Assembly (NCBI GenBank): GCA_965116905.1
Contig: OZ220732.1
Span: 448,001 to 512,000 of the forward strand
Length of the DNA stretch: 64,000 nucleotides
Direction of reading: 5' to 3'
Source: Longimicrobiales bacterium
GTDB lineage: Bacteria; Gemmatimonadota; Gemmatimonadetes; Longimicrobiales; Gaopeijiaceae
A program made the position numbers and the translations under genes. The notes under the pieces were generated by a model that ran no database searches, had not been told where the DNA came from, and worked only from the letters and a program-made list of their open reading frames with translations. Every line of letters begins with the position of its first letter. Position 1 is the first letter of the stretch. This document shows positions 11,026 to 40,574 of this stretch, one piece after another.

Positions 11026-12342
11026 TCAGCCTTTTTCGGGCACCGCGATCCCGTACTGCAGCAGCGTGGCCCTCAGCGTCGGGCGGCCGAGGCGCACACG
11101 GCTGTCATCGAGCAGGAACGAGAAGACGTAGCCGGCGCCGAGCATCAGGATCCCGATCAGGAAGCAGTACATGACGGCCCGGTCCGGGTAGGTGTCCTTC
11201 AGGTATCCCACGTACATGGGTCCGATGATCCCCGCCGCGGACCACGCGGTGAGCACCGTACCGTAGATCTTCGACATGTTCCGGGAGCCGAAGACGTCGA
11301 CGATGAACGACGGCATCGTCGCGAAACCGCCCCCGAAGCAGAGCAGCACGTAGCAGACGAGGATCGAGAAGATCCAGGGGTTGGAATTCGTCATCAGGAT
11401 GCCGAACACCACCATCTGGCTGGAGAGCAGGATCCTGAACACCGCGACGCGTCCGAGGCGGTCGGACAGCAGTCCCCAGAAGATGCGGCCCACTCCGTTG
11501 CACAGCGAGCTGACCGCGATGAGCGTGGCCCCGTACTCGGCAAGGGTCGCGGGATCGATCGAGGGGTCGGCCAGCCCCCAGACCTCCTGAAGCAGCTCGG
11601 ACTGGAAGCTGATGACGGAAATGCCCGCGGCGATGTTGAAGAAAAAGACCGTCCACATGATCGCGAACTGGCTGGTGCGCAGGTACGGAGCCGTGGCCTC
11701 GGCCTTCGGTGGCGGCGCCCGCGGCGAGGTCGGCCGCCGCTCCGCCACGGGCTCGGGCGGATCGCTCAGCACCAAGCTGCTCGGAATCAGGATGCACGCG
11801 AAGACGATCCCCAGCCATAGGAAGACGACCTGCAGGTCCCCCTGGGCCTGAACGACGAGCAGCGGAGCGAGACCCTTGCTGAGCAGGAAGGCCCCGACAC
11901 CGAAGCCCATCACCACGATGCCGGTGACCAGCCCCTTACGGTCGGGGTACCACTTGGCCACCGTCGCCACCGGCGTGACGTACCCCATCCCGATTCCCGC
12001 CCCGCCGATCACGCCGTAGCCGAGGTAGAACAGCCAGATCGCATCCAGGGACAGGGCCAGGCTCGCGACCAGGTAGCCGGCCGAAAAAAGGCAGCTGCCC
12101 GTTACGGCCAGGAACCGGGGGCCGACCCGGGGCAAGGCCTGCCCCGCCAGCGCCGCCGAAACGCCCAGCGTGAAGATGGTGATGCTGAATGCGGCGGCCG
12201 TCTGGCTGAAGGTCCAGCCCACGTCCCGCACGAGCATGGTCTGGAAGAAGCTCCAGGCGTACACGGTCCCCAGGCAGACCTGCAGCAGGGTGCAGAAGAC
12301 GGCGATGACGCTCCTGGGCACCCGCGTGGCTGGGGTGGACAC
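11026..12342 (-). CDS. OFA-family (YhjX / monocarboxylate transporter-like) MFS transporter
   Basis: GTVYAWSFF, GYVTPVATVAKWYPDRKGLVTG, NGVGRIFWGLLSDRLGR, about 12 TM helices. Probable GTG start at 12342, 1 bp after the upstream stop. Confidence 0.9.
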   Translation of the reverse strand: MSTPATRVPRSVIAVFCTLLQVCLGTVYAWSFFQTMLVRDVGWTFSQTAAAFSITIFTLGVSAALAGQALPRVGPRFLAVTGSCLFSAGYLVASLALSLDAIWLFYLGYGVIGGAGIGMGYVTPVATVAKWYPDRKGLVTGIVVMGFGVGAFLLSKGLAPLLVVQAQGDLQVVFLWLGIVFACILIPSSLVLSDPPEPVAERRPTSPRAPPPKAEATAPYLRTSQFAIMWTVFFFNIAAGISVISFQSELLQEVWGLADPSIDPATLAEYGATLIAVSSLCNGVGRIFWGLLSDRLGRVAVFRILLSSQMVVFGILMTNSNPWIFSILVCYVLLCFGGGFATMPSFIVDVFGSRNMSKIYGTVLTAWSAAGIIGPMYVGYLKDTYPDRAVMYCFLIGILMLGAGYVFSFLLDDSRVRLGRPTLRATLLQYGIAVPEKG

Positions 12343-12343
12343 G

Positions 12344-13120
12344 CTAGTCGCCGCCCCCGGACCCCGTTCCCTCGTCCTTCGCAAAGGCGAGGTCGTCCGC
12401 GACATACTGCATCATGCGCGCCATGTCGCCGATCTCGTCGTCGCGGACCAGGACATCGCCGTGGGTGGTCCCGTCGCTCTCCTTGTCCCGGGCCAGCGTC
12501 ACGACGTACTCCAGCAGCTCGGTCAAGGGCCTGGACGCGAGGTTGACCAGCCAGATCGACGCGAGGACCCCGGTGACGAGGATGATGCAGAGGAGGTAGA
12601 CCTGCTGGCCCACCGCGCGCTGGATCTTGAGGCCCAGACGCTCCAGGTCCATGCCCACGTGCACCGTGCCCGCCACGCCGGACAGAATCGGACTCCCAAC
12701 CTCGACGAAATCGCCCAGTCCGGGCAGGCTGCGCTCGACGGCTTCGGTGGCCGACGGATCGCTGGCCAGGATCTCCTCGGGGATGCCGGGAATGAAGGTG
12801 TGGGCCAGGAATTCCCCGGTGTCGCTGGTGATGTAGATGTAGCGGATGCTCTCGATCTGGACGAACTGGTCGATCAGCGACTGGAGCGTGGCCAGGTTGC
12901 GATTGAGCAGGATGTCCACGCTGGAGTCCGCAATGTTCTTCGCAATGCTCTCGCTGTTGCTCACGTATTCGTCCCGCAACTCGCGGGAGACCGACGAAAT
13001 CGACAGGATCGAGATCGCCAGCACCACGATCCCGAAGAGGGCGAAGAAACCGAAACGCGTTTTGCGGAAGAGTTTTCGAACCTTGAGGACTTCTTCACCC
13101 TTCTGGATCATGGCAGTCAT
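12344..13120 (-). CDS. Membrane sensor: TM - extracytoplasmic domain - TM - HAMP, with no output domain
   Basis: TM1 FGFFALFGIVVLAISIL, TM2 VYLLCIILVTGVLASIWLV, HAMP SRPLTELLEYV...RDDEIGDMARMM, then a stop. Confidence 0.8.
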   Translation of the reverse strand: MTAMIQKGEEVLKVRKLFRKTRFGFFALFGIVVLAISILSISSVSRELRDEYVSNSESIAKNIADSSVDILLNRNLATLQSLIDQFVQIESIRYIYITSDTGEFLAHTFIPGIPEEILASDPSATEAVERSLPGLGDFVEVGSPILSGVAGTVHVGMDLERLGLKIQRAVGQQVYLLCIILVTGVLASIWLVNLASRPLTELLEYVVTLARDKESDGTTHGDVLVRDDEIGDMARMMQYVADDLAFAKDEGTGSGGGD

Positions 13121-14484
13121 GAGACGGGGAACCTGCCCTCCCAGTCCTCGAGCGGAACGAAACGCTCGCCCTCCGGGACCGTGTAGTAGACTCGTTGCAG
13201 CCCCTGGCGGCGGTCGGGACCGTAGCGCACCCGCTCGCCGACCCCGAGATCGTAGTCTCGCACGGCGAAGACGGCCTCCTCGATCCCGGATCGCTGCGGG
13301 TTGTCGCCCATGCGCCGGATGATCTCGGTGATCAGCTTCGCGTTCACGAATCCCTCCAGGCTCACGAAGCTCTGGGGGAACGTGGTATACGGTTCACCGG
13401 GCGTGATCCGCTCCACGTCGTCCGGAGGAGGCGGATCGTAGCGCGCCATCAGTTCGTGGTACTCGCGGACCGCGGGGAGCGACGTGTCCTCGTAGCTCGG
13501 GACCACCTGCGAGTTGACCAGGAAGCGCGTGTGCGCATCGGCATCCGCGCGACCCTCGCGCATCAACGCGAGTAGATTCTCGCTGCCCACGAACGACACG
13601 TTGGCAACCGGTATGTGGAGCCCCAGATCCTCGGCGTCCCGGGCGAAGGCCGCGCAGGCCTGATAGGCGCCGATGCAGATCACGGCATCCGGGGAACGCG
13701 CCTGCAGGATCTCCACCTGTCCCCGCATGCTCGCCCCGAACTGCGTACCGCGCATGTAGGTCGCCTCGCCGGCCATGGTCTCGCCGTGCCTGGCCAGTGC
13801 CTCGCGCACCCCGGCCCAGCCGCTGCGCCCGTAGGCGTCGTTCTGGTAGAAGACCGCTACCCGGCGGCGCCCGATGCTCAGGAAGTTGTCGACCAGCCCG
13901 GCCGTCTCCTGGCGGTAGGAGGCGCGAAGGTTGAACGCGAACTCGCCATACGGGGGTTCGCGCTGCGGCTCCGCCCCGGTGAAGGGGAAGAAGAGATACA
14001 CCTGCTGGTCGCGGAACTTCTTCAGCACGGGGAGCGCCCGGGTGACCGTCGGCGTGCCCACGTAGTTGAAGAGCAGAAAGACGGACTCGTCCTGGATGAG
14101 CTCGATCGTGTTGGCGACGCAGGGGTCGGGCTGGTATCCGTCATCCAGCAGCTTCATCACGATCCGGCGGCCGTTGACCCCGCCGTTCTCGTTGACGTGG
14201 TTGAAGTACGCCATGGCGCCGCGGTACAGCTCGGTGCCGAGTCCCCGCGAAGGACCCGAGAACGCGGCGGACACGCCAAGGACGATCTCGTCGTCCTGAA
14301 CGGTCGCACCCACACGGCCCCGCGGCCCCGGATACGAATGGACGCCGGACGCCCCGAGCCTTCCGGCCCACGGTGCCGCCATCAGCGCCCCGAGTCCCGA
14401 GCGAACAAGTGACCGGCGGGTCATCGTGCCTGACCGTTTTTGTCGCCCCTCGCCCTCTCCTCCGCCGCCAATGCGAGTCGTCAC
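13117..14484 (-). CDS. Periplasmic solute-binding protein, LivJ/Peripla_BP_6 type, with Tat signal
   Basis: MTRRSLV twin-arginine signal (alternative start 14424), LGVSAAFSGP, NGGVNGRRI, DDGYQP, VGTPT, FYQNDAYG. ATGA overlap with the HAMP gene. Confidence 0.88.
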   Translation of the reverse strand: MTTRIGGGGEGEGRQKRSGTMTRRSLVRSGLGALMAAPWAGRLGASGVHSYPGPRGRVGATVQDDEIVLGVSAAFSGPSRGLGTELYRGAMAYFNHVNENGGVNGRRIVMKLLDDGYQPDPCVANTIELIQDESVFLLFNYVGTPTVTRALPVLKKFRDQQVYLFFPFTGAEPQREPPYGEFAFNLRASYRQETAGLVDNFLSIGRRRVAVFYQNDAYGRSGWAGVREALARHGETMAGEATYMRGTQFGASMRGQVEILQARSPDAVICIGAYQACAAFARDAEDLGLHIPVANVSFVGSENLLALMREGRADADAHTRFLVNSQVVPSYEDTSLPAVREYHELMARYDPPPPDDVERITPGEPYTTFPQSFVSLEGFVNAKLITEIIRRMGDNPQRSGIEEAVFAVRDYDLGVGERVRYGPDRRQGLQRVYYTVPEGERFVPLEDWEGRFPVS

Positions 14485-23896: not shown

Positions 23897-25228
23897 CTAC
23901 GTACACACCGAGGAGTTCTGAATCTCCGGATTGAGGGTGCATTCGATCTCTGGAACCGGCATGCACGACACGCGCGGTTCGGCGCCCGGACCGATAAGGG
24001 TCCCGCCCTGCAGGAACGGATGCTGCCATCGGTCGAGATCGAAGAGGCGACGCCCCTCGATCCACAGCGTCAGGTAGCGTTCCCGGTCCAGGATCGACCA
24101 GGCGTCGTCCTGGGCGTTCGGAAACTCCAGCGCTCCGGCCGCAGCCGGCTGTTCGATCGGATCCGCGCCGTAGAATGCGCGCACCTCGTTGACCTTGGCC
24201 GTAAAGGTCGCAAGGTCGCCGCCAACCAACGCGGCCTCGGCCTCGATGAGGCGCATCTCCGTGCCGGTGACGATCGGGACGTCGCTCCCGGATTCATTGT
24301 ACTTGTCCTGCCTGTAGTGCGCGGTCAGTCCGTCCGCGCCCTGGTGCGCGCCGCTGCCCTGCCCGGTGCACACGCCCGTCGGCGTCACGCCCTTCGACGG
24401 ATCAGTCGGGTCGTTCCAGGCACCGCAGATCGTGTACGGCGCCCGAGGGTCGCCGTCGAACACACGTTGCGCCGGCGTTGCCCAGACACCCACCTCCGCA
24501 CGTCCCCACGACTCGTTCCACACTCCGTTGCTGTTGGCGGTGAGGTGGTAGATGGCGCTGTGCATGAAGTTGGTGGGCACCATGGACGCCGACTGCACAG
24601 CCGCCGACCAGTTGCCGAGCCCCACGTTCGCCTGGGCGATTCCGCCATGTGCGGCGGTCACGTAGTCGCTCGCACCCGCCGCCGTGCCGATGGTGACCGC
24701 CTGGTTCAGCGCGACAATGGCGCTGTCGAAGGCGGCCGTACGCGGTTGCAGCGGGCCCTTGTCATAGACGAGGTCACAGAAGTTCTCGCCCAGCATCCGG
24801 TGCGCCAGTCCCATCAGCAGGAAGACCCGCGCGGAGCCGTCGAAGCTGTTGGCTTCCCCACCAAGCACGTCCTGGAGCCGCTCCCAGGCCCCTCCCGCGG
24901 CCCAGGCCGCCTCGTGGGCCTGTTCCCAGTGCCCCTCCGAATTCTCGTTGTCGAAGACGCCCCTCCGGTACTGTCCGGTCGAGAAGTAGCTTCCCGTGCC
25001 GGCCAGGTCGTCGGTGAGACGGGCGATATCGAAGGCGTAGAAGTCGCCGATGTCGTTGAACTCGGCCGAAACCCCGGAAACCAGGATCGGCATGAGCTCC
25101 CGCGTGGTGAGGTCCTCGTCCAGGATCCTCCCCGGGTTCAGGACCTCGAGTTCGCAACCCGCCAGACCCACGCCGCACAGCAGGACGGCGACGCTGCCGA
25201 TGCCAGCTTTTCGCGTTCGTTTCGTCAT
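23897..25228 (-). CDS. susD: RagB/SusD-family outer-membrane lipoprotein
   Basis: Lipobox LAGC, EMRLIEAEA, ERYLTLWIEGRRLFDLDR, CMPVPEIE..LNP. Directly downstream of SusC. Confidence 0.88.
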   Translation of the reverse strand: MTKRTRKAGIGSVAVLLCGVGLAGCELEVLNPGRILDEDLTTRELMPILVSGVSAEFNDIGDFYAFDIARLTDDLAGTGSYFSTGQYRRGVFDNENSEGHWEQAHEAAWAAGGAWERLQDVLGGEANSFDGSARVFLLMGLAHRMLGENFCDLVYDKGPLQPRTAAFDSAIVALNQAVTIGTAAGASDYVTAAHGGIAQANVGLGNWSAAVQSASMVPTNFMHSAIYHLTANSNGVWNESWGRAEVGVWATPAQRVFDGDPRAPYTICGAWNDPTDPSKGVTPTGVCTGQGSGAHQGADGLTAHYRQDKYNESGSDVPIVTGTEMRLIEAEAALVGGDLATFTAKVNEVRAFYGADPIEQPAAAGALEFPNAQDDAWSILDRERYLTLWIEGRRLFDLDRWQHPFLQGGTLIGPGAEPRVSCMPVPEIECTLNPEIQNSSVCT

Positions 25229-25244
25229 CGTATTCGTCCCCCCC

Positions 25245-28172
25245 TCAGAAGTTCACGGAGAGGTTCAGGATGAAGATCCTCGGCGGCGCCATGTTGTAGT
25301 ACTCGTTGGGCGTCGAGTCCCCGAACCCGTTGTCGTTGGCCTCGGGATCCAGACCGCGGTAGTTGGTCCAGGTCATCAGGTTCTTGCCGGCGACTCCGAT
25401 CTGGGCGCTGCGGGCGCCCGGCACCATGCCGTCCGGCAGACGGTAGGTTATGGATGCCGAGCGGATCTTGAAGAAGTCCGCCAGATCGGTCCACATGCCC
25501 TGGTCCGAGTACGGCCCGATGCAGCGGGCAATGTCCGAGGCCGGCAGGCCCATCTGCGCCACCCGCGACGAACCCGACCCGCGAAGCGAGTAATACATGT
25601 CCTGGATCGCGGGGCATCCGTCGCCCGGCCACACGCGCCTGCGCACGTTCTGGTACGCGATCCCGATGGGCCTGACCATGCCGTACTGGCCCTCGCCGAC
25701 CAGGTCGATCGTCAAAGAGCGCCACAGGGTCAGGCGGGTGTTGAGACCCACCGTCTCGGTGGGGAACAGGTTGCCGATGTTCCCCTTCTCGTAGTCGGGA
25801 AGCTCCCCGATCGCATCCGGATTCGTCAGGGTGTCGTCCCAGCGTATCCATAGCGGAAAGCCCAGTTGGCGCGAGGTTCCCAGATCCTCCAGGGGACCGA
25901 GATCGGTGATTTCGCTGTCGTTGGTGGTGAAGTTCACACCGATGTCCCACTCAAGGTTGTCGGTCCGGACGGGTACGAAGTTGATCATGGTCTCCGTACC
26001 CCAGTTCTTGACCTCACCGAGATTGCGCCAGGTGCATTCCTCCGTCCCTCCGGAGGGTGCCTCCTGAACGCAGATCAGTGCATCCCGCGTGGTCTGGTCG
26101 AACGCCGTGAACTCGACGATCAGCCGACCGTTCAGGAAAGACGCGTCGGCCCCGTACTCCAGTTCCGTAGACACTTCGGGGCCCAGATCGGAGTTGCCAA
26201 GGTTGGCGATGATGACGGCGGGCACCTGCTCGTCGGCGGATGTCGCCTCGTAGGTGCGTTTGGCGTCGAATGCACCGGGCGCCTTGCCGGACTGGCCCCA
26301 TGCCGCACGCAACTTGAAGGTTTCGGTCCAGTCGAAGGGGAAGAACTCCTCGTCCGAGACGGTGTAGGCGGCTTGAAGCTTGGGATAGGCGGCGAGACCG
26401 AAGCCCTCGCCGAACGTGCTGAAGCCGTCCCACCGGATTCCACCGGTCAGGAAGAGCTTGTCGTTCAGCCCCAGAACCTCCTGCAGGAAGAAACCACCAC
26501 TTCGTTCAATGATTCGGTTCTCGAAAACCCTGGGATTGTTGCCATCGCCCAGAACCTGCTCGCCCGGTCCGGCAAACAGTTCGTCGAAGCCGTTCATCGT
26601 GTAGTTGAACTCTTCGTATACCTGGCCTCCCCAGGAGAAGTCCGAAGTGACGTTGTTCAACGGACTGTAGGAGAAGGTCCCGCTGTAGTCGAAGGTCAGA
26701 TTGCGATCGAACTGCTGATCGATCTCCCGGTCGCCGGTCGCCTCCTCGTAGAAGCCCCATCCCTTGAAGTCGATGAAGTCCGACGAAGTGTAGTCGATCC
26801 CCACGTTCATCCGGTGCGAGAACATGCTGTTCGGTGCCCATCCAACCGACAGGCTGGTCACATACTGGTCGAGATGGGTCAGAATCTCGTTCTCCAGTAC
26901 CAGCGAGTCGTCGTTGCCCGGGGTGTACCCACGGTCCCCGCGCAGCACGTTCAGGTAGAGACCCGATGCGTTGTTGCCGTTGGGGATCCAGGTGATGTTC
27001 CGGCGCGCATAGCTGCTGTTCAGCTGTACGTTGAACCCTTCGGCCGGCTGGAAGGTGATGTTGGCGCGAACGTTGTAGTTGTCCGCCCCCTGCGGATCCA
27101 CCACGCCCTGCCGGTCGCCGTACTGGCCCGACACGAAGTAGGTCGCGTTCTGTCCACCGCCCCGCACGCTCAGGTTGTACACCTGGTGGCGGGCGTTGCG
27201 GAACCAGCTTCCGCTTTCCGGACAGCCGGGCTCGTCGACCCCCATCTCACCCGTCTGGTGGTTGAGGATACCCGGATCACGGCAGGTGTTGAGGAACAGC
27301 CCTGACGGGTTCACGTCAACGCCGGGGCCCTGGTGGGGCATCACGCTGAGACCCTGCTCGACTGAGGCCGTCCACGCCGGAGCTCCCGCCACCCCGCGCT
27401 TGGTGAAGATCTGGATCACGCCACTGGACGCTTCGGTACCGTACAGCGTCGTCGCGGCGGGCCCCTTGATCACCTCCATGCGCTCGATGTCGGCCGGGTT
27501 GATCATGTCGAAGGCCGAAGGCGTCTGCGCGCCCTCGTCGTCCGAGCCGATCGGGTTGTTCTCGAGACGGACCCCGTCGACGTAGATGAGCGGGTTGTTG
27601 CCCTGCTGCAGGGAGTTGTTGCCGCGCAGCCGGATCTGGCTGGCCGCGCCGACCTGCCCGCTGTGGTCGTTCACCTGTATGCCGGTGGTGCGTCCCTGCA
27701 ACACGTCGCCGAAGTCGGTAACCGCCGTGTACTGGATGTCCTCGGCGACGACCTGGCTGATGCTGTTGCCGACCTCGCGCCTGCGGGCCTGCCCTGCCGT
27801 TCCGGTCACGACAACGCCCTCGAGGGCAATGGCGTCCTGGCGGATGTTGAAGTCCGCCGTCGCCGCCCCTCCTGCGGGCACCGTCACCGTCAGTTCCGTG
27901 CTGCCGTAGCCGATAAGGTCGACTCGCACGGTCTGCTCGCCGGCAGGGACGTTCACGAGCAGGTAGCGACCCACGTTGTTGGTCAGCATCCCCAGCGTCG
28001 TCCCGGCGATGGAGATCTGGGCGCCCGCCAGCGGCGCCTGGCTGACCGCGTCTCTGACGCTCCCTGTCACCGTCCCGTTCTGCGCGGCCAGTTGGGCGCT
28101 GCCGACGGTGAGAAAAAGCGAGGCTCCGAGCACGACCATGTGCACGGAGCCTTTCGGTGGAAGAAGCCGCAT
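25245..28172 (-). CDS. susC: SusC/RagA-family TonB-dependent transporter
   Basis: SD aaggaggg, N-terminal carboxypeptidase-regulatory-like domain, plug (PLIYVDG, DIERMEVIKGPAATTLYG), YRGLDPE, C-terminal Phe. Confidence 0.93.
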   Translation of the reverse strand: MRLLPPKGSVHMVVLGASLFLTVGSAQLAAQNGTVTGSVRDAVSQAPLAGAQISIAGTTLGMLTNNVGRYLLVNVPAGEQTVRVDLIGYGSTELTVTVPAGGAATADFNIRQDAIALEGVVVTGTAGQARRREVGNSISQVVAEDIQYTAVTDFGDVLQGRTTGIQVNDHSGQVGAASQIRLRGNNSLQQGNNPLIYVDGVRLENNPIGSDDEGAQTPSAFDMINPADIERMEVIKGPAATTLYGTEASSGVIQIFTKRGVAGAPAWTASVEQGLSVMPHQGPGVDVNPSGLFLNTCRDPGILNHQTGEMGVDEPGCPESGSWFRNARHQVYNLSVRGGGQNATYFVSGQYGDRQGVVDPQGADNYNVRANITFQPAEGFNVQLNSSYARRNITWIPNGNNASGLYLNVLRGDRGYTPGNDDSLVLENEILTHLDQYVTSLSVGWAPNSMFSHRMNVGIDYTSSDFIDFKGWGFYEEATGDREIDQQFDRNLTFDYSGTFSYSPLNNVTSDFSWGGQVYEEFNYTMNGFDELFAGPGEQVLGDGNNPRVFENRIIERSGGFFLQEVLGLNDKLFLTGGIRWDGFSTFGEGFGLAAYPKLQAAYTVSDEEFFPFDWTETFKLRAAWGQSGKAPGAFDAKRTYEATSADEQVPAVIIANLGNSDLGPEVSTELEYGADASFLNGRLIVEFTAFDQTTRDALICVQEAPSGGTEECTWRNLGEVKNWGTETMINFVPVRTDNLEWDIGVNFTTNDSEITDLGPLEDLGTSRQLGFPLWIRWDDTLTNPDAIGELPDYEKGNIGNLFPTETVGLNTRLTLWRSLTIDLVGEGQYGMVRPIGIAYQNVRRRVWPGDGCPAIQDMYYSLRGSGSSRVAQMGLPASDIARCIGPYSDQGMWTDLADFFKIRSASITYRLPDGMVPGARSAQIGVAGKNLMTWTNYRGLDPEANDNGFGDSTPNEYYNMAPPRIFILNLSVNF

Positions 28173-28299
28173 GGGCCCTCCTTTCTGATGCGGGGACACA
28201 CTGGTGGCGTGCCTCCCTGGAATACCTCAACTGCCATCATGGGGCGCGCCTCGGCCAGGCGCAAGCAGGAATCGCGGCCGTGGGACGGGCCAGGAGCCC

Positions 28300-32560: not shown

Positions 32561-33859
32561 TCAGCCCGTGGGCCCGTTGATATTCGGGTTCGTGTCGACT
32601 TCACCGCGCGCGATGGGGAAGCACAGGTCCTGCTGGACCAGGTGCGAGCCCTCGTTCTGGCTCCCTGACGGCTGCTCCAGCGAATGCAAATCGCCGGGCG
32701 TGTTGTCGCGGTTCCAGCGGAAGAAGTCGCCGAGGCGGCGTCCCTCCAGCCACAGAACCACGCCGCGCTCGAACTTGAGCGCCGTCCACGCTTCGGCGGT
32801 GTTGGTCGCCATCGCCGGCTCCACGCCTGCGGCCATGCGCAGGGCGTTGATCTTGCCCATGGCGCCTTCCCAGTCACCGTTTACCAGCATGCCCTCGGCC
32901 TCGATCAGGCGCATTTCGGTGCCTTTTGAGAGCGGGATGTCCGTTCCCGAATCCGCGTACTTCGTCTGCGGCCACCAGGGCACCTGGCCACAGCACTGGA
33001 CCGCGGCGTCGCCAGTCTCGTCGGTCACCCGGTACGGGACGCGCGGGTCACCGTCCGGGTTGTTCTCGCTCATGCTGTAGTCCTCGTACTTCGTGTATCT
33101 CTGGGTGTGAGCCTTGTACGGCTCCGCCTGGCTTGCGAACTGGATCCGGTTGCGGGTCGCGTTGCCCTCGGTGGCGAAGTACGGCATGTGGAAGACGAAG
33201 TTGTCGGGCACGCCGGCCGCGTCGGCCATTGCCCCGGACCAGTCGCCCATGAACGCCTTGACGGCCGCCCGCCCCGCAACCGCCGCCATCGCCACGTCGC
33301 CCGATCCAAGCGAGGCCGCCTGGTCGAAGCGGGCGATCGCGCGGTCGTAGTACACGCTGCGCGCGCCCGCACCCCCGCCGTCGATCACCGAGACGCAGAA
33401 GTTCTCGCCGAGAAGGCGGTGCGCGTACCCGGTCCACAGGTACGCCTCGGCCAGAGTCGCCTGGTCCTCGGCGCCCGTCTCCATGATCTTGGCGATCCCG
33501 TCGTCACCCCACCAGCGGGCGCGCTGGGAGAGGTTCCAGTGGGTGCCGACCGTCTCGTAGTCGAGTTCCCCGTTTTGCCATTCGACGGTGATCCCGAAGC
33601 TTCCCGTCGAGCCCGACGGATGGATCTCGCGCGTGACCGCCGCCCCGGTGTAGCCGACATAGTTCTGGGCTTCCGCGGCGGCACGGCCGATCCCGCTTAC
33701 GATCGCTTCCTGGGCTTCCGTCTCGAAAAGGAAGACCTCCTGAACGCGGCCCGGGTTGACGACCGTGGTATCACAGGCCGCCAGCAGCCCGAGCAACGCG
33801 GCGGAGAGGAGAGCACCCCGTCGCATGCCGCATGACGTATTCATCGAAATGTATTTCAT
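32561..33859 (-). CDS. susD: RagB/SusD-family outer-membrane lipoprotein
   Basis: Lipobox LAAC, EMRLIEAE, ERGVVLWLEGRRLGD, CFPIARGEVDTNPN. Follows SusC. Confidence 0.88.
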   Translation of the reverse strand: MKYISMNTSCGMRRGALLSAALLGLLAACDTTVVNPGRVQEVFLFETEAQEAIVSGIGRAAAEAQNYVGYTGAAVTREIHPSGSTGSFGITVEWQNGELDYETVGTHWNLSQRARWWGDDGIAKIMETGAEDQATLAEAYLWTGYAHRLLGENFCVSVIDGGGAGARSVYYDRAIARFDQAASLGSGDVAMAAVAGRAAVKAFMGDWSGAMADAAGVPDNFVFHMPYFATEGNATRNRIQFASQAEPYKAHTQRYTKYEDYSMSENNPDGDPRVPYRVTDETGDAAVQCCGQVPWWPQTKYADSGTDIPLSKGTEMRLIEAEGMLVNGDWEGAMGKINALRMAAGVEPAMATNTAEAWTALKFERGVVLWLEGRRLGDFFRWNRDNTPGDLHSLEQPSGSQNEGSHLVQQDLCFPIARGEVDTNPNINGPTG

Positions 33860-33875
33860 TCGTCTCTCCCCTCCT

Positions 33876-36800
33876 CTAGAAGACGAGCTGCATGGAGAAC
33901 GTGTAGAACGCCGGCGGCGGAACGTGCTCGGTCATGCTGCGCACCCGCGTGTTGTAGCCGACGTTGCCGCCGACCTCCGGATCCAGCGTCCGCATGAGCG
34001 GATCCACCCACCGGAAGAAGTTCCGGCCCGACAGCGTGACCGTGGCGCGAGACGCCCCGACCATGCTGGCCCACGCGTCCGGCAACGGCGCCTGCGCGCT
34101 GATCTCGCGGATCTTGAAGAAGTCCGCGGGCTGCACGGCGAAGTCCGACTGGTAGAACTTCAGGTCGCAACGCGCGCGCTCCTCGGCGGTCAGGGCCGCG
34201 TACCCCTGGGTCTCCCAGGTATTGTAGGCCTCGAAGCATCCGGCCCACCGCACCGACCGGCGCGTGGCCGCGGCCTGCGGCCCGTTGTACATGAAGGCCC
34301 CGCCCTGGTACTCGGCCCGCGCGGTCAGCACGATTCCCGCGGGAAGCCCGAAGGTCGTGCCGAAGCCCGCGATGGTCGTCGCCTGGTTGGGTCCGTGGAC
34401 GCACTGCTCATCGGTGCGGTCCAGGATGATCGGGTCGGCGCGTTCATCAGGATTGGTCACGCAGTCGGACCGGATGACCGGGGCCGGATAGCCCTCCGTC
34501 ACCCAGCCGAAGCCGCCGATCGAGAACTCTGGCGATCCACCCAGCGAAATGATCTCGGAGTCGGTCTTGGAAAGGGTGCCGTTGATGTCCCAGGTCCAGG
34601 TGTCATTCCGGATGATGCTGTAGTTCAAGCCGAGCTCGAGGCCGTTGTTGACGAGTTCGCCGACGTTGGAAAGCTGGGAACTCGTAAAGCCCAGCGACGG
34701 AACCTGGCGCACGCTGAAGAGCGCGTCCTGGGTCGTCTGGGCGAAGTAGGTGAAGTCGAGGCCGAGCCTGTCGTCGACGAACGAACCCTCGAAACCAAGC
34801 TCGAGCTCGGAGGTCGTCTCGGGACCGATCGTCGCGTTGCCCACATTGCTGGGCAGGAAGGCCGGCACCCCGCCCCAACCGGCGGCGGCGAAGGTTCGGA
34901 CCGCGTCGAAGGCGCCCGGCGCGCGTCCCGCCTGACCCCAGGCGGCCCGCAACTTCATGCTCCCCCAGCCGGCGTCCCAGAAGTCCTCGTCCGAGATCAC
35001 GTAGGAACCCGAGACTTTCGGGTACGCCTGGAGCCCGAAATCGGCACCGAAGGCCGAGTTGCCGTCGACCCGGAGGCCGACCGTGATGAAGTACTTGTTG
35101 GAGATGTCGAAGACGTTCTGCACGAACAGGCCGGCGTTCACGATCCGGGTGCGGTCCTCGAAGCCCAGGGTGTTCCCGGCGTTGTCCACGTCGGGATCAC
35201 CGGGGCCGGGGAAGTTGTCCCCGTATGCCGTCGTCCGCTCGCTCCGCGTCGTGACGCTCTGCCCACCGAAGGACAGGGCCGACCGGATTCCCATGGGAAG
35301 GCTGAAGTCCAAAGAGCCCACGTAGTCCGCCGTAAGCGTGTTGAACTCGAAGCGCGACGTGGCGAGGATCCCCGTGGGCGCCCGGATGAAGCCGAAGGGC
35401 CGCAGGTTGCGGTTGTCCTGCTGGGCCAGGTCGTACCCGACGCTGAAGCGGTTGCTGAAGTTCGCCAGCGGCGAATACGTGGCCGTCAGCCCCGTGATCA
35501 GGTGATCGATCTGGGTGGTGATCTCCTGGTTCAGGAAGGGGTTGATGGCGTTGAACGACTCGTCGTTGAGGTAGTTCCGGTCGCGCCGGAAGGTGTTCAG
35601 CGTCATCCCGTGCGCGTTGTTCCCGCCCGCGGTGTGCGCCAGCTGGTCGTTCGTGTACGACGTGTTCCACTGGAGCTGCAGGGATTCCATGGGATTGAAC
35701 GTGAAGTTCCCCCGGAGGATGACCTTTTTCTCGTTGTCGTTGGGCAGGACGCCGTCGTCGTTCTCGTAGGACGCCGACACGAAGTACCTCACGGTCTCGG
35801 CGCCGCCGCCGACGTTCAGCGCGTACTTCTGCTGGTGCGCGCCCATGTCGCTGAAGAGCCCGCTGTCGCAGGGCTGGTCCTGCACGACGATCGCGTCGTC
35901 GCACATCGGCTTGTGGCCGCGCAGCCAGGGGTTGATGAAGAGGAAGTCCGACCGGCCGCCCGAAAGCGAGGTCGGGTTCTCTGACGGCGGCCGCAGCGAC
36001 GGATCGGGACCAAAGGTCAGGTTGCGGGACAGGCCCTGTTCGAGCTGACCGGTCCAGGTTGCATCGCCGACGGACCCGCGCCTGGTGAAGATCTGGATCA
36101 CCCCCGCCGAGGCCTCGGTGCCGTACAGCGTCGTCGCGGCCGCGCCCTTGATCACCTCCACCCGCTCGATGTCCTGCGGGTTGATGCTGTTGAGCGGGCT
36201 GGAGACGTCGTTGTTGCTGCGGCCGGAGTACCCGATCGGCGGCACGTTCTTGGCGAACCCCTCGCTTCGGACCCGCACCCCGTCGATGTAGATGAGGGGC
36301 TGGTTGGACTGGGTCATCGAGACGTTGCCACGCAACCGGATCATGGCGCCGCCGCCGGAGCTTGCCGAACTCTGCGTGATCGACATGCCCGGGACGCGCG
36401 CCTGAAGCAGCGCGTCGACGTTGACGGGGGGCCCGACGACCTCCTGCTGCACGTCGAGCTGCGAGATCGAGTTGCCGACCTCACGGCGGCGCGCGGCCCC
36501 CGCTGTCCCGGTCACCACGATCTCGTCGAGACCCAGCGCCTGGGCTGCGATGGCGAAGTCGTGCTGTGTGGTCGCACCCGCGTTGATGGTGATCGTCGCC
36601 TCCGCCGACGCGAACCCGATGCGCTCGGCGCGAATCGTGTACTCGCCTGCCGGCACGTTGAGGATGACGAAGCGGCCGTTGTCACGGGAGAGCGTTCCCA
36701 GTCCGGTGCCATCCAGGTACACCTGGACGGATCCCACCGGCCGGCCGCTCGTCCCGTCGGTGACCGTGCCCGTAACCGCCCCATCCTGCGCCTGCGCGGC

Positions 36801-36896
36801 GCCCGGGACGGCGAGCGCGAGCGCGAGGATGACGACCCCCGCCGCGCCGACTCCGCCCATGCGGGAACGGAGTGCATCGAACAATCGGTTTGTCAT
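33876..36896 (-). CDS. susC: SusC/RagA-family TonB-dependent transporter
   Basis: SD aaggag before ATG 36896, LDEIVVTG, PLIYIDG, DIERVEVIKGAAATTLYG, LDPE, C-terminal Phe. Confidence 0.93.
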   Translation of the reverse strand: MTNRLFDALRSRMGGVGAAGVVILALALAVPGAAQAQDGAVTGTVTDGTSGRPVGSVQVYLDGTGLGTLSRDNGRFVILNVPAGEYTIRAERIGFASAEATITINAGATTQHDFAIAAQALGLDEIVVTGTAGAARRREVGNSISQLDVQQEVVGPPVNVDALLQARVPGMSITQSSASSGGGAMIRLRGNVSMTQSNQPLIYIDGVRVRSEGFAKNVPPIGYSGRSNNDVSSPLNSINPQDIERVEVIKGAAATTLYGTEASAGVIQIFTRRGSVGDATWTGQLEQGLSRNLTFGPDPSLRPPSENPTSLSGGRSDFLFINPWLRGHKPMCDDAIVVQDQPCDSGLFSDMGAHQQKYALNVGGGAETVRYFVSASYENDDGVLPNDNEKKVILRGNFTFNPMESLQLQWNTSYTNDQLAHTAGGNNAHGMTLNTFRRDRNYLNDESFNAINPFLNQEITTQIDHLITGLTATYSPLANFSNRFSVGYDLAQQDNRNLRPFGFIRAPTGILATSRFEFNTLTADYVGSLDFSLPMGIRSALSFGGQSVTTRSERTTAYGDNFPGPGDPDVDNAGNTLGFEDRTRIVNAGLFVQNVFDISNKYFITVGLRVDGNSAFGADFGLQAYPKVSGSYVISDEDFWDAGWGSMKLRAAWGQAGRAPGAFDAVRTFAAAGWGGVPAFLPSNVGNATIGPETTSELELGFEGSFVDDRLGLDFTYFAQTTQDALFSVRQVPSLGFTSSQLSNVGELVNNGLELGLNYSIIRNDTWTWDINGTLSKTDSEIISLGGSPEFSIGGFGWVTEGYPAPVIRSDCVTNPDERADPIILDRTDEQCVHGPNQATTIAGFGTTFGLPAGIVLTARAEYQGGAFMYNGPQAAATRRSVRWAGCFEAYNTWETQGYAALTAEERARCDLKFYQSDFAVQPADFFKIREISAQAPLPDAWASMVGASRATVTLSGRNFFRWVDPLMRTLDPEVGGNVGYNTRVRSMTEHVPPPAFYTFSMQLVF

Positions 36897-37003
36897 GCTT
36901 CTACTCCTTGCCAAACCTGTTTGCAGCCGGCCCGGCACCGGGGCGCTCCCGGTCCGCCCGTCCCGCAGTGCACACCTGCGGAACGATCCGACTGGCGATG
37001 AAC

Positions 37004-38024: not shown

Positions 38025-40404
38025 TTAATAACGTAACACGGCTTCTACCTGGCGAATCACGTCCTGGATTTCGGCGTCGCCGGGGGCGAACTCGAGTGCG
38101 GTGTAGAGCGACGGAAGCGCCTCCGCCACACGGCCGGTGTTGGCCAGGGACACGCCCAGGTAGAAGTGGGCGCGCGAGAGTCCGGCGTCGTTGCGGACCG
38201 CGGCGCGGTAGGCCGTGATCGCGCCCTCGAAGTCGCCGCGCCGGAACCGGACGTTGCCCAGGTTGAGGTGTGCCAGAGCCTCGGTGGGCCGGACCCGGAC
38301 GGCCTCTTCGTACATGGCGGCCGCGTCGTCCTCGCGGCCGAGCGTCTCGAGGGCCAGGCCCACGTTCACGAGCGCGACAGGGTCTCCGGGTCCATGGCGT
38401 AGCGCTTCCAGATACACCTGCACGGCCTGCGCCATGTCCCCCGCCGCCGCGAGCCCCGCCCCCAGCGCGACCAGCACCTCGGGCGCCGTGGGGCGCACCT
38501 CCTGCGCGCGCTGGAGAAACGGCAGCGCCGCCGCGGGGCCCTCCACCCTGTCCACCGCGGCCGCCCACTGCATCAGCGCCGCCGCCCACCTCGCCCGGAG
38601 CGCCCCCTGGTCCGGGGCCCCGCGCGTCACGGCGTCCAGGAGCGCGCGCACGTCGGGGTCATCGCCCCGGGTGGCGTGCAGGGCGGCGGCGGCCGCCGCG
38701 CGCACGTCCTCGTCGTCGTCGCGGACAAGGGTGGCCAGGGCGCGCCCCGGGGCGTCATCGAGCCCGGCCGCGCGGCCGTCGCCCGGCGCGGCCTGCTCCG
38801 GTCCCGTTCCGGCGCGGGTCGCCCGTCCCCGCGTGGCGTCCCCGCACCCACGTGTCGATGGCCATCAGCTTGGCGATGCCGTGCCGCGGTCCCCGCGCGG
38901 CGGCCGTGGCCAGGGCGCGGTCAAGGTCGCCGGGTGAGGCGGTGGGCGCGGTCGCGGCGACCAGGGCCGCCACCTCGGGGCGGTGCGGCGCGGTCTCGCC
39001 CCACCACGCGGCTGCCTGCACGGCCAGTTCGGCGGGTGATCGGTCGCTGTGACATCCCGCGCACGCCGACTGCAGCCCGGCCTCCTCGTCGAAGCCCGGG
39101 CGCGGAATCGAGATCGTATGGTCCGCTCTTGCATACGGTATAGCCGGTGACAGTTCAGGATGCTGGACGTAAGGCATGTGGCACGATGTGCAGGCCGCCC
39201 CGGGAGAGCCCGCCGGATGGAAGGTGTGCGCCTCGGGATCCGCGACCTTGCTGGCGTGGCACGCCGTGCACTGGCCGTCGTCGAACCTGCCTTCGAGCGC
39301 GTTGCCGAAGACATCGCGGTAGCCCTGACCGTGCGGGTCGTGGCAGTCGACGCAGGTCATCGAGCCGAAGAGGTAGCACGCGCTGGAGCGATGGGTCTGC
39401 TGGTAGCCGAAGGTGGCGATCCGGCCATCGGGCAGGTAGGGCGAGTCCCCGATGAGCGGGAGGCCGAGGCTGTATTCGCGGGGACCGGCGGTCGGGGCGT
39501 CGCCCGTGTCGGCACCCGAATCGTCGCCGAGCGCGCGCTTGAGGGCGTGGCAGTCGAAGCACACGCGCAGCGACGCGTCCGGGTCCAGCGTGGCGAGCGT
39601 TGCGGGGAGCGCGCCGGGCTCGGCCGCCGGGGCTTCGCGGGGCGGTTGCCGTGCCCGCGACGGGTCGGCGGCTACTGCACGCGCCTCCTCGACGTGCGCG
39701 AGGGCCGGGCCGTGACAGGATTCGCAGTTGATCGCGAGCGATGTCGCGCGGGTCTCGTAGCGCGCGAGGTCGGCCCGGTACCGCACTTCGACCTGGCTGC
39801 CGTGACAGTTCTGGCAGTTCGCGAACCGGCGGTTGGTCCCCAGGATTCGCACCGGCGGCCAGTCGCCGCACTCCGTCAGGCGCATCGATTCGGTTATGGG
39901 AAGCCACCCGGCGTCGGCCCGCAGCCGCGCACGATCCGCACCCGGGACCCAGAATCCACCCACGAATGCGGTATTGCAGAACCACGTGTCGCCGTCTTCC
40001 GAATAATCGAAGGGAACAAACCGCTCGGTGCCGTCAGGGAACAGCGACGCGAAGCCCTGCGTCCCGCCTCCCACCATGTGTCCGGCCCCGATCACCCCCG
40101 TCACCTCGAGCTCCATGGGCGGACGCCCGTTGCGCTCCACGACGAAGACGTACCGGCCGTCGTCCCGCACCACCGGGGACACGACGGCGTCGGCAAACCG
40201 GATCGGCGGGCCACCGAAGGGGGCGATGACGGTGCCCGGGCCGGGTGGGCCGCCGGCCTGACCGTGCGTCGACTCCGCCCACGCGTCGTACTGCTCCTGG
40301 TGACACGTCCGGCAGGCTTCGGAACCCGCGATCCCCTGAGGCGTCTGGGGCGTGGCGCCGGCCGCGAGGATCAGTCCCACCGTGCCGAGGGTAGCCGTGT
40401 TCAA
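38025..40404 (-). CDS. Octaheme c-type cytochrome with HEAT/TPR C-terminus, split by a frameshift near 38760-38850
   Basis: Eight CxxCH motifs (CRTCH, CQNCH, CESCH, CFDCH, CVDCH, CTACH, CTSCH, CAGCH) in ORF 38755-40404. HEAT-like DDDEDVRAAAAAAL and TPRs continue in an adjacent frame to 38025. Confidence 0.8.
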
Positions 40405-40574
40405 GCCTCCGAACCTCTCTGGTGTTGCTTCCCGGACCCGTCGCGGCCATTCGGTCGCTCGCGAAACCCCGGGGCACGACACTCGAAGTTGACGTTGCCG
40501 GATCGGATCGGCGAAAATCCCTCCGCCAATCTTTATACGTCACAAAGGCGCCCGTTTCAAACGGCTCACCACCC

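Follow-up and report, generated by a model that had tools for sequence, protein, structure and literature searches.

Three coupled genes at the locus

We analysed a stretch of 64,000 nucleotides from a Longimicrobiales bacterium (Gemmatimonadota; GenBank assembly GCA_965116905.1, contig OZ220732.1, positions 448,001 to 512,000), hereafter the window, in which three open reading frames (ORFs) on the minus strand encode, in this order, a solute-binding protein (SBP; 13117..14484), a short membrane receptor (12344..13120) and a carrier of the major facilitator superfamily (MFS; 11026..12342). The SBP is a class I periplasmic binding protein with a LivJ-like fold (Pfam Peripla_BP_6, 133 bits), and the carrier, which starts with GTG, falls in the group of the L-lactate transporter SfMCT and the OFA carriers (NCBIfam, Pfam MFS_1 and alignment). 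The stop codon of the SBP gene and the start codon of the receptor gene overlap in an ATGA motif (13117..13120, minus strand), and the TAG of the receptor gene ends at 12344, leaving a 1 bp gap before the GTG of the carrier gene at 12342. A first-pass annotation, made from the letters alone, had described the three genes with this overlap and this gap; both are real in the sequence, and ORFs, coordinates and Pfam/NCBIfam families bear the description out. It had also seen no ABC transporter, kinase or response regulator nearby, and no such family appears among the 60 window ORFs scanned with Pfam, out of 149 that reach 150 amino acids; the ORFs scanned include neither a LivHM permease nor a LivFG ATPase. 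As set out below, the SBP, the output-less receptor and the MFS carrier form a real and conserved three-gene unit.

A receptor that ends after its HAMP domain

In the receptor, a protein of 258 amino acids, Pfam, hydrophobicity and a predicted model delineate a short cytoplasmic helix, a first transmembrane (TM) helix (TM1; residues 23–41, 12998..13054, minus strand as for all features of the unit), a periplasmic single Cache domain of the sCache_3 type (Pfam sCache_3_2; residues 47–167, 12620..12982) with a CitA/WalK-like fold, a second hydrophobic segment (TM2; residues 174–192, 12545..12601), a divergent HAMP domain (residues 195–241, 12398..12538) and a variable tail. The alignment shows a phenylalanine-rich face of TM1 that is conserved in the output-less clade, and the model (pLDDT 71.6) resembles the sensor regions of WalK and CitA. 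The HAMP domain claimed in the first-pass annotation holds with a qualification: the Pfam HAMP model does not match the receptor, but a custom profile made from HAMP segments taken from 60 output-bearing relatives matches 42/42 short forms at E < 1e-3 (8e-12 for the window receptor), so that the segment is a divergent HAMP. R226, D228, E229, G231, A234 and R235 are its invariant residues, and the motif of its second helix is invariant in 58/58 rows of the alignment. The protein does stop right after this domain, as had been claimed: its stop codon lies at 12344, it has no Pfam output match (kinase, MCP, cyclase or phosphatase), and over 116 loci the tail that follows the R-x-D-E-x-G motif has a median length of 25 residues.

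A homolog search limited to 141–452 amino acids gave 729 matches, and the 120 listed were all 238–285 amino acids long. An unrestricted profile search gave 2265 matches, among which 104 listed proteins have at least 340 amino acids; 33 scanned from among the top-ranked of these carry a kinase (18), PP2C (six), MCP (four), cyclase (one) or STAS (one) domain, PAS/GAF only (two) or none of these (one). Since long relatives carry kinase, PP2C, MCP and cyclase domains, the N-terminal module of the receptor is a sensor input of general use. When the N-terminal modules of 42 short and 60 output-bearing proteins are placed in a FastTree (midpoint root), the short forms make up one side of a branch with a support of 100, with a kinase as their nearest neighbour; the direction of change was probably loss of output. 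For the window and 14 of its close relatives, an approximate counting method puts the ratio of nonsynonymous to synonymous substitution rates (dN/dS) at 0.08 in the periplasmic part of the receptor (residues 44–173) and at 0.18 and 0.14 in its TM regions, compared with 0.08–0.09 in the core of the carrier. The short receptor is therefore under purifying selection. A truncation of a kinase or cyclase homolog had been named beforehand as the finding that would overturn the proposal. Its more remote homologs do run on into kinase, MCP, PP2C or cyclase domains. The short forms, however, make up a single conserved group under selection, and the receptor is not the product of a local truncation in this genome.

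The conservation of TM1 relative to that of the Cache core is 0.76 versus 0.79 in the short forms and 0.45 versus 0.60 in the output-bearing forms; this relatively higher conservation in the short forms would fit a partner surface, a hint at most. The source labels of the short homologs include Acidobacteriota and Alphaproteobacteria (going by the labels alone). Other clusters of 218–277 amino acids with sCache_4, GAPES3 or SMP_2 sensor domains, several of them with HAMP, are listed in the ESM Atlas, which suggests a broader class of short output-less sensors.

Conserved linkage of the three genes

The synteny set comprised 122 loci, of which 43 of 45 came from genomes (two weak chemoreceptor matches were omitted) and 79 were metagenomic (from the best 80 of 261 candidates). 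A closed short receptor ORF is directly followed by the MFS gene in 110 of the 111 loci with downstream sequence and directly preceded by the SBP gene in 113 of the 114 with upstream sequence; at the sole exception (L076) the receptor gene is divergent from an MFS–SBP pair, and all three genes are still together. An amidase-like gene directly follows the receptor gene at L076. The linkage extends to a second clade (L106–L129), where identity to the window falls to 45–52%. The three genes are thus syntenic elsewhere, as a conserved linked unit present in many uncultured bacteria. When ORFs of at least 120 amino acids in the flanks were clustered, any one flanking gene was common to seven of the 89 loci at most, and no flanking regulator was shared.

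Receptor and carrier were also searched separately in 301 sampled genomes of the phylum, which avoids the bias of retrieving loci through one gene. Both occur in the same 45 genomes, in 47 copies each, all adjacent to judge by the coordinates of the matches, and 0/301 genomes hold one but not the other. SBP, receptor and carrier are all absent from G017 and G407, single contigs that are 97–99% complete, and receptor and carrier are absent from G024 (370 contigs). One contig (G442:C3) carries three full trios, two of which have identical scores and lie 90 kb apart and are possible assembly duplicates. Beyond the phylum, the trio was found at L039 (Binatia) and in G154. Another sample of 301 genomes from the phylum, searched without a positive control, yielded no match, a plasmid search gave only one weak chemoreceptor match, and a pattern scan of viral contigs gave 0.

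Five loci with output-bearing relatives of the receptor (L043, L137–L140) give the complementary picture: none has a related MFS gene (0/5), and the same kind of SBP gene lies directly upstream in 4/4 with upstream sequence. In this sample, the SBP–sensor pair therefore goes with an enzymatic output or with the carrier, never with both.

These counts bear on the idea that the genes are merely co-located, with a carrier that works alone and an SBP–receptor pair left over from an SBP–kinase system and kept, for example, for ligand buffering or SBP anchoring. The relatedness of the receptor to output-bearing sensors is what such a remnant would look like, sister carriers exist without partners, and in one genome (G011) the carrier gene is in two pieces. 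Yet dN/dS stays at 0.08–0.27 across all structured parts of the receptor, the linkage persists to about 50% identity and through the rearrangement, and no genome has parted receptor and carrier; we regard independence as quite unlikely. The two pieces in G011 are two frames of the carrier gene (G011:C2:67404-68792; L021), and an SBP frame at another locus (L022) holds an internal stop; either assembly error or decay would account for these broken frames.

Separate receptor and carrier frames

The carrier frame is open back to 12405 and so overlaps the end of the receptor gene. The first-pass annotation had pointed out that deleting one base from a G run would join the two frames, and this arithmetic is right; the fusion itself is not real. 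The proposed site is a G5 run (12354..12358, minus strand; a C run on the forward strand). Over 12340–12410, four sequencing runs show no indel, and contigs from two of them (X3 and X5) cross the G run without a gap. No closed cassette locus has lost the receptor stop ahead of the carrier, and the homologs show receptor and carrier in all three possible frames relative to each other. The sequencing-error version of the fusion is refuted, and a single receptor–carrier protein, whether through such an error or a programmed frameshift, is hardly credible, even though one database protein with scrambled frames (P0274) contains pieces of both. This scrambled protein was the only one of 157 library proteins to match the MFS carrier. 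The fusion searches, which are weak with only 7996 candidates scored for receptor and MFS, returned as longer receptor homologs kinases and two frame-scrambled SBP–receptor read-throughs (P0121 and P0122), and as longer MFS homologs three proteins, none of which has Cache or HAMP.

A carrier of the SfMCT group

The carrier scores 332.1 bits against the NCBIfam equivalog of SfMCT (NF049980; cut-off 320) and stays under the oxalate/formate antiporter cut-offs (165 versus 335 bits and 182 versus 375 bits). It shares the carrier group of SfMCT (6G9X/6HCL; PMC6573034) and OxlT (8HPJ; PMC10070484), and the carboxylate site made of a TM4 tyrosine and a TM8 asparagine and arginine is kept. Equivalents of SfMCT Y119, N276, R280, F335, K377 and D378, residues of the carboxylate-binding and proton sites as presented in PMC6573034, are found in the window carrier; in the cassette carriers, Y121, N282 and R286 are present in 57/57 rows and F340 in 55/57, and the equivalents of the acidic SfMCT residues D257 and D378 are retained. 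The SfMCT proton-site pair H250–Y383 is not kept, its positions being occupied by F246 (56/57) and R388 (51/57) in an ungapped reading. In SfMCT, an H250F change inactivates the transporter according to PMC6573034. Phe246 is also present in 5/5 stand-alone sister carriers and therefore marks the subfamily rather than a dead carrier. The second basic residue of OxlT, Lys355 in TM11 (PMC10070484), corresponds to Trp367 here, which makes oxalate an unlikely cargo. With no Lys355 equivalent in the cassette carriers, the cargo is likely to be a monocarboxylate, as far as the binding-site residues can tell.

In a quick tree, the cassette carriers form one side of a branch with a support of 95, beside five sisters treated as stand-alone (four checked in genomes, and P0280, which has no gene context). 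Twelve columns are conserved only in the cassette carriers. Among them are R388, V390 and C393, at the periplasmic end of TM12, and two residues of a C-terminal extension, T426 and L427. The segment PDRAVMYCF (residues 386–394, 11161..11187), which covers the loop before TM12 and its start, is accordingly a candidate partner surface, with which the cassette-only residues loosely fit.

Two further proteins (P0278 and P0279), in two separate clusters, have a cassette-type MFS part running in frame into an amidase with a signal peptide; P0278 falls inside the cassette clade. The amidase continuation of the two proteins may be a genuine fusion or may stem from the loss of a stop codon.

The binding protein and its paralogs

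The SBP is predicted with confidence (pLDDT 91.6) to adopt the fold of class I binding proteins. Its best PDB matches, 4KV7 and 3LOP, are about 30% identical and uncharacterised by title, and the fold search gave no ligand identity. The true start of the SBP may be the ATG at 14424, from which a twin-arginine signal motif, MTRRSLV, runs (14404..14424, minus strand). A loose RR pattern is found in 41/52 cassette SBPs, and the divergent clade mostly has ordinary signal peptides.

In the source genome, a distant SBP paralog (37% identity) lies between a receiver–PP2C gene and a HAMP–histidine kinase gene (L047:6489-11160; G000:C1, about 2730.5–2735.2 kb), so that this genome also employs the SBP family in signalling. 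The genome also has a LivHM-type ABC cluster (C1:77–82 kb); the possibility that the cassette SBP serves it was judged unlikely. Another Peripla_BP_6 gene lies near this cluster (C1:71.4–72.5 kb).

Comparison with known systems

The TRAP and TTT families combine an SBP (DctP/TctC), a small subunit (DctQ/TctB) and a carrier (DctM/TctA), and TTT transporters have the same three-component plan without an ATPase as our unit. TRAP transporters likewise pair a binding protein with a small membrane protein and a large secondary carrier, again with no ATPase (as presented in PMC9352664). The families involved are different: the SBP is of the Peripla_BP_6 class I LivJ type and not DctP, TAXI or TctC, the carrier is MFS_1 and not DctM/TctA, and the sCache_3 and HAMP protein is not DctQ/TctB. 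The likeness of plan raises a TRAP-like hand-over, in which the receptor, as a DctQ-like scaffold, would hold the SBP over the carrier so that ligand is delivered into the MFS protein and taken up with high affinity, the HAMP domain only dimerising. Such a scaffold would suit the strong constraint on the periplasmic and TM parts of the receptor, the cassette-only changes at the periplasmic rim of the carrier, with R388 at the SfMCT Y383 position, and the uptake role suggested by an SBP paralog that lies between TonB-dependent receptor genes. The invariant motif of the second HAMP helix speaks against it, as does the presence of the same SBP clade beside carrier-less kinase sensors, which points to sensing, and we find hand-over rather unlikely.

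Known SBP-stimulated receptors provide the closest parallel for the sensing half of the unit. In LuxP–LuxQ, TorT–TorS, HptA–HptS, AioX–AioS and BasB–BasT (PMC8050422), the SBP gene likewise neighbours the gene of a receptor whose periplasmic domain is of the Cache type; BasB is a Peripla_BP_6 protein and AioS has an sCache-like domain (PMC8050422). The receptors in the list of that article all have a kinase or chemoreceptor output, whereas the receptor here has none and is linked to a carrier. GlnH–GlnX–PknG, as described in PMC9769921, comes nearer in that an SBP and a membrane receptor without a classical output are thought to act by contact on a separate protein; GlnX, however, has four-helix-bundle sensors and no HAMP domain in this description, and the target is a kinase rather than a carrier. 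By this precedent, the SBP and receptor of our unit could signal in trans to a cytoplasmic protein encoded elsewhere, with the MFS protein as a co-sensor or simply co-expressed. Purifying selection on the HAMP helices would suit such an output, as would Phe246 at the place of the SfMCT proton-site histidine, a substitution that inactivates SfMCT. But Phe246 is no mark of a dead carrier, being common to the sisters, and no fourth gene travels with the unit despite its occurrence in distant groups, whereas glnX, glnH and pknG are clustered; this makes trans signalling less likely, and we hold it to be unlikely overall.

Af1503-like receptors, known from the Af1505–Af1502 operon of Archaeoglobus fulgidus, also have a HAMP domain as their sole cytosolic domain and a translationally coupled operon with a solute carrier, and transport genes are enriched near such receptors according to the authors (PMC4834066). 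The likeness noted here is one of domain plan and gene setting. The Af1503 family is archaeal, its genomic partners are a STAC protein and an SLC41/MgtE carrier, and the passages that describe it make no mention of an SBP (PMC4834066); the receptor here is bacterial and has an sCache_3 domain, with a Peripla_BP_6 SBP, an MFS carrier and no fourth conserved gene. The three window ORFs leave no room for a gene between them, and the flank clustering took ORFs of at least 120 amino acids and used no STAC profile.

On the carrier side, SfMCT was assayed by expressing the carrier itself (in the experiments of PMC6573034), and the gene here always comes with SBP and receptor genes. YpdA/YpdB–YhjX resembles the unit in that a sensor controls an MFS carrier; the control of YhjX is transcriptional, through a kinase and a regulator (as outlined in PMC5552118). 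Rv1410–LprG, as far as described, also joins an MFS protein to a periplasmic partner, but LprG is a lipid-carrying lipoprotein of an exporter, and there is no receptor. By the features that define them, the unit does not qualify as a TRAP/TTT, ABC or kinase/chemoreceptor system.

A possible binding-protein-controlled transporter

The reading that we favour, with a probability of roughly 45%, is that the unit is a binding-protein-controlled secondary transporter in which the SBP, via the receptor, gates or tunes the carrier. The SBP would capture a small organic acid in the periplasm and, once liganded, would dock on the Cache domain of the receptor, as may be expected from other SBP–receptor pairs and from the SBP–sensor pair that also exists with a kinase sensor. 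The receptor would then contact the MFS carrier in the membrane and switch or tune transport. The first-pass annotation had placed this contact at the HAMP domain. Its interpretation stands as far as the linked three-gene unit, the output-less receptor and the lack of an ABC or two-component partner nearby are concerned; the Cache part, and not the HAMP domain, is the most constrained, which leaves the HAMP domain an unproven contact. The TM helices and the periplasmic rim would be at least as plausible as contact sites. A more general statement would be that secondary transporters dependent on a binding protein include a new class, whose sensor module has given up an enzymatic output and taken an MFS carrier in its place, the liganded SBP directly gating or loading this rocker-switch transporter through a Cache–HAMP subunit. 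This seems to us slightly more probable than its opposite.

Several observations weigh against the favoured reading. The HAMP helices (dN/dS 0.27 and 0.19) are less constrained than the Cache domain, and the HAMP connector (0.86) is nearly neutral. Receptor–carrier contact is so far inferred only: co-variation between the proteins, calculated as mutual information over 58 paired rows, gave flat top scores with no clear signal, and the top pairs include positions on opposite sides of the membrane. No clean receptor–MFS fusion was found in the receptor family, so that of the neighbourhood search suggested at first pass only the widespread SBP–receptor–MFS synteny materialised. Stand-alone sister carriers (49–54% identity) occur in genomes without the receptor, and the carrier group can therefore presumably work alone. 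The SBP type can persist alone as well, since an SBP paralog from within the cassette clade (72% identity; C1:137.4–138.7 kb) is flanked on either side by a TonB-dependent receptor gene, in a region (L046:4497-13262; G000:C1, about 134.5–143.3 kb) where neither the receptor nor the carrier gene of the unit adjoins it, and G024, which lacks the cassette, keeps such a paralog. Finally, the counts are less independent than they look: many loci duplicate one another (at 93% identity, the 88 in which both genes are complete come down to 57), most of the counted genomes are related members of two families, and the synteny counts do not reach the deepest short forms (P0134, P0143 and P0153).

Surrounding genes

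The genes adjoining the unit encode a 2-oxoglutarate dehydrogenase E1 (convergent), an M28 peptidase and a quinone-oxidoreductase-like protein. A promoter scan gave 0 sites, and terminator-like sites were at chance level only. Farther along the minus strand of the window there are two SusC/SusD-like pairs, each a TonB-dependent receptor with SusD (23897–28199 and 32561–36938), and a multiheme cytochrome c gene (38755–40482; CXXCH families, weak MtrC/MtrF-like match). Upstream of the 72% SBP paralog lies a gene for a class I/II aminotransferase with a twin-arginine-like N-terminus, and near the paralog (L046:14089-15357) a gene with reductive-dehalogenase-like and 4Fe–4S Pfam matches.

Biological meaning

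Binding proteins are known to work with ABC, TRAP and TTT transporters and with receptors whose output is enzymatic. We found no report in the literature of an SBP that controls an MFS carrier through a receptor subunit, and no published description of the SBP/receptor/MFS trio in a search that did not extend to subscription papers and supplements; the three-gene module is apparently undescribed. If the coupling is direct, it would be a new transporter class, with a transporter as the output of a Cache–HAMP sensor, and would provide a three-gene bacterial test case for the function of output-less HAMP receptors such as Af1503. The best-matching sequencing runs with a named habitat are sponge metagenomes, and one metatranscriptome run has contigs over the region (contigs not being proof of transcription). 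As the unit is common in this sponge-associated lineage of Gemmatimonadota, a metabolite that bacterium and sponge host exchange may be its ligand.

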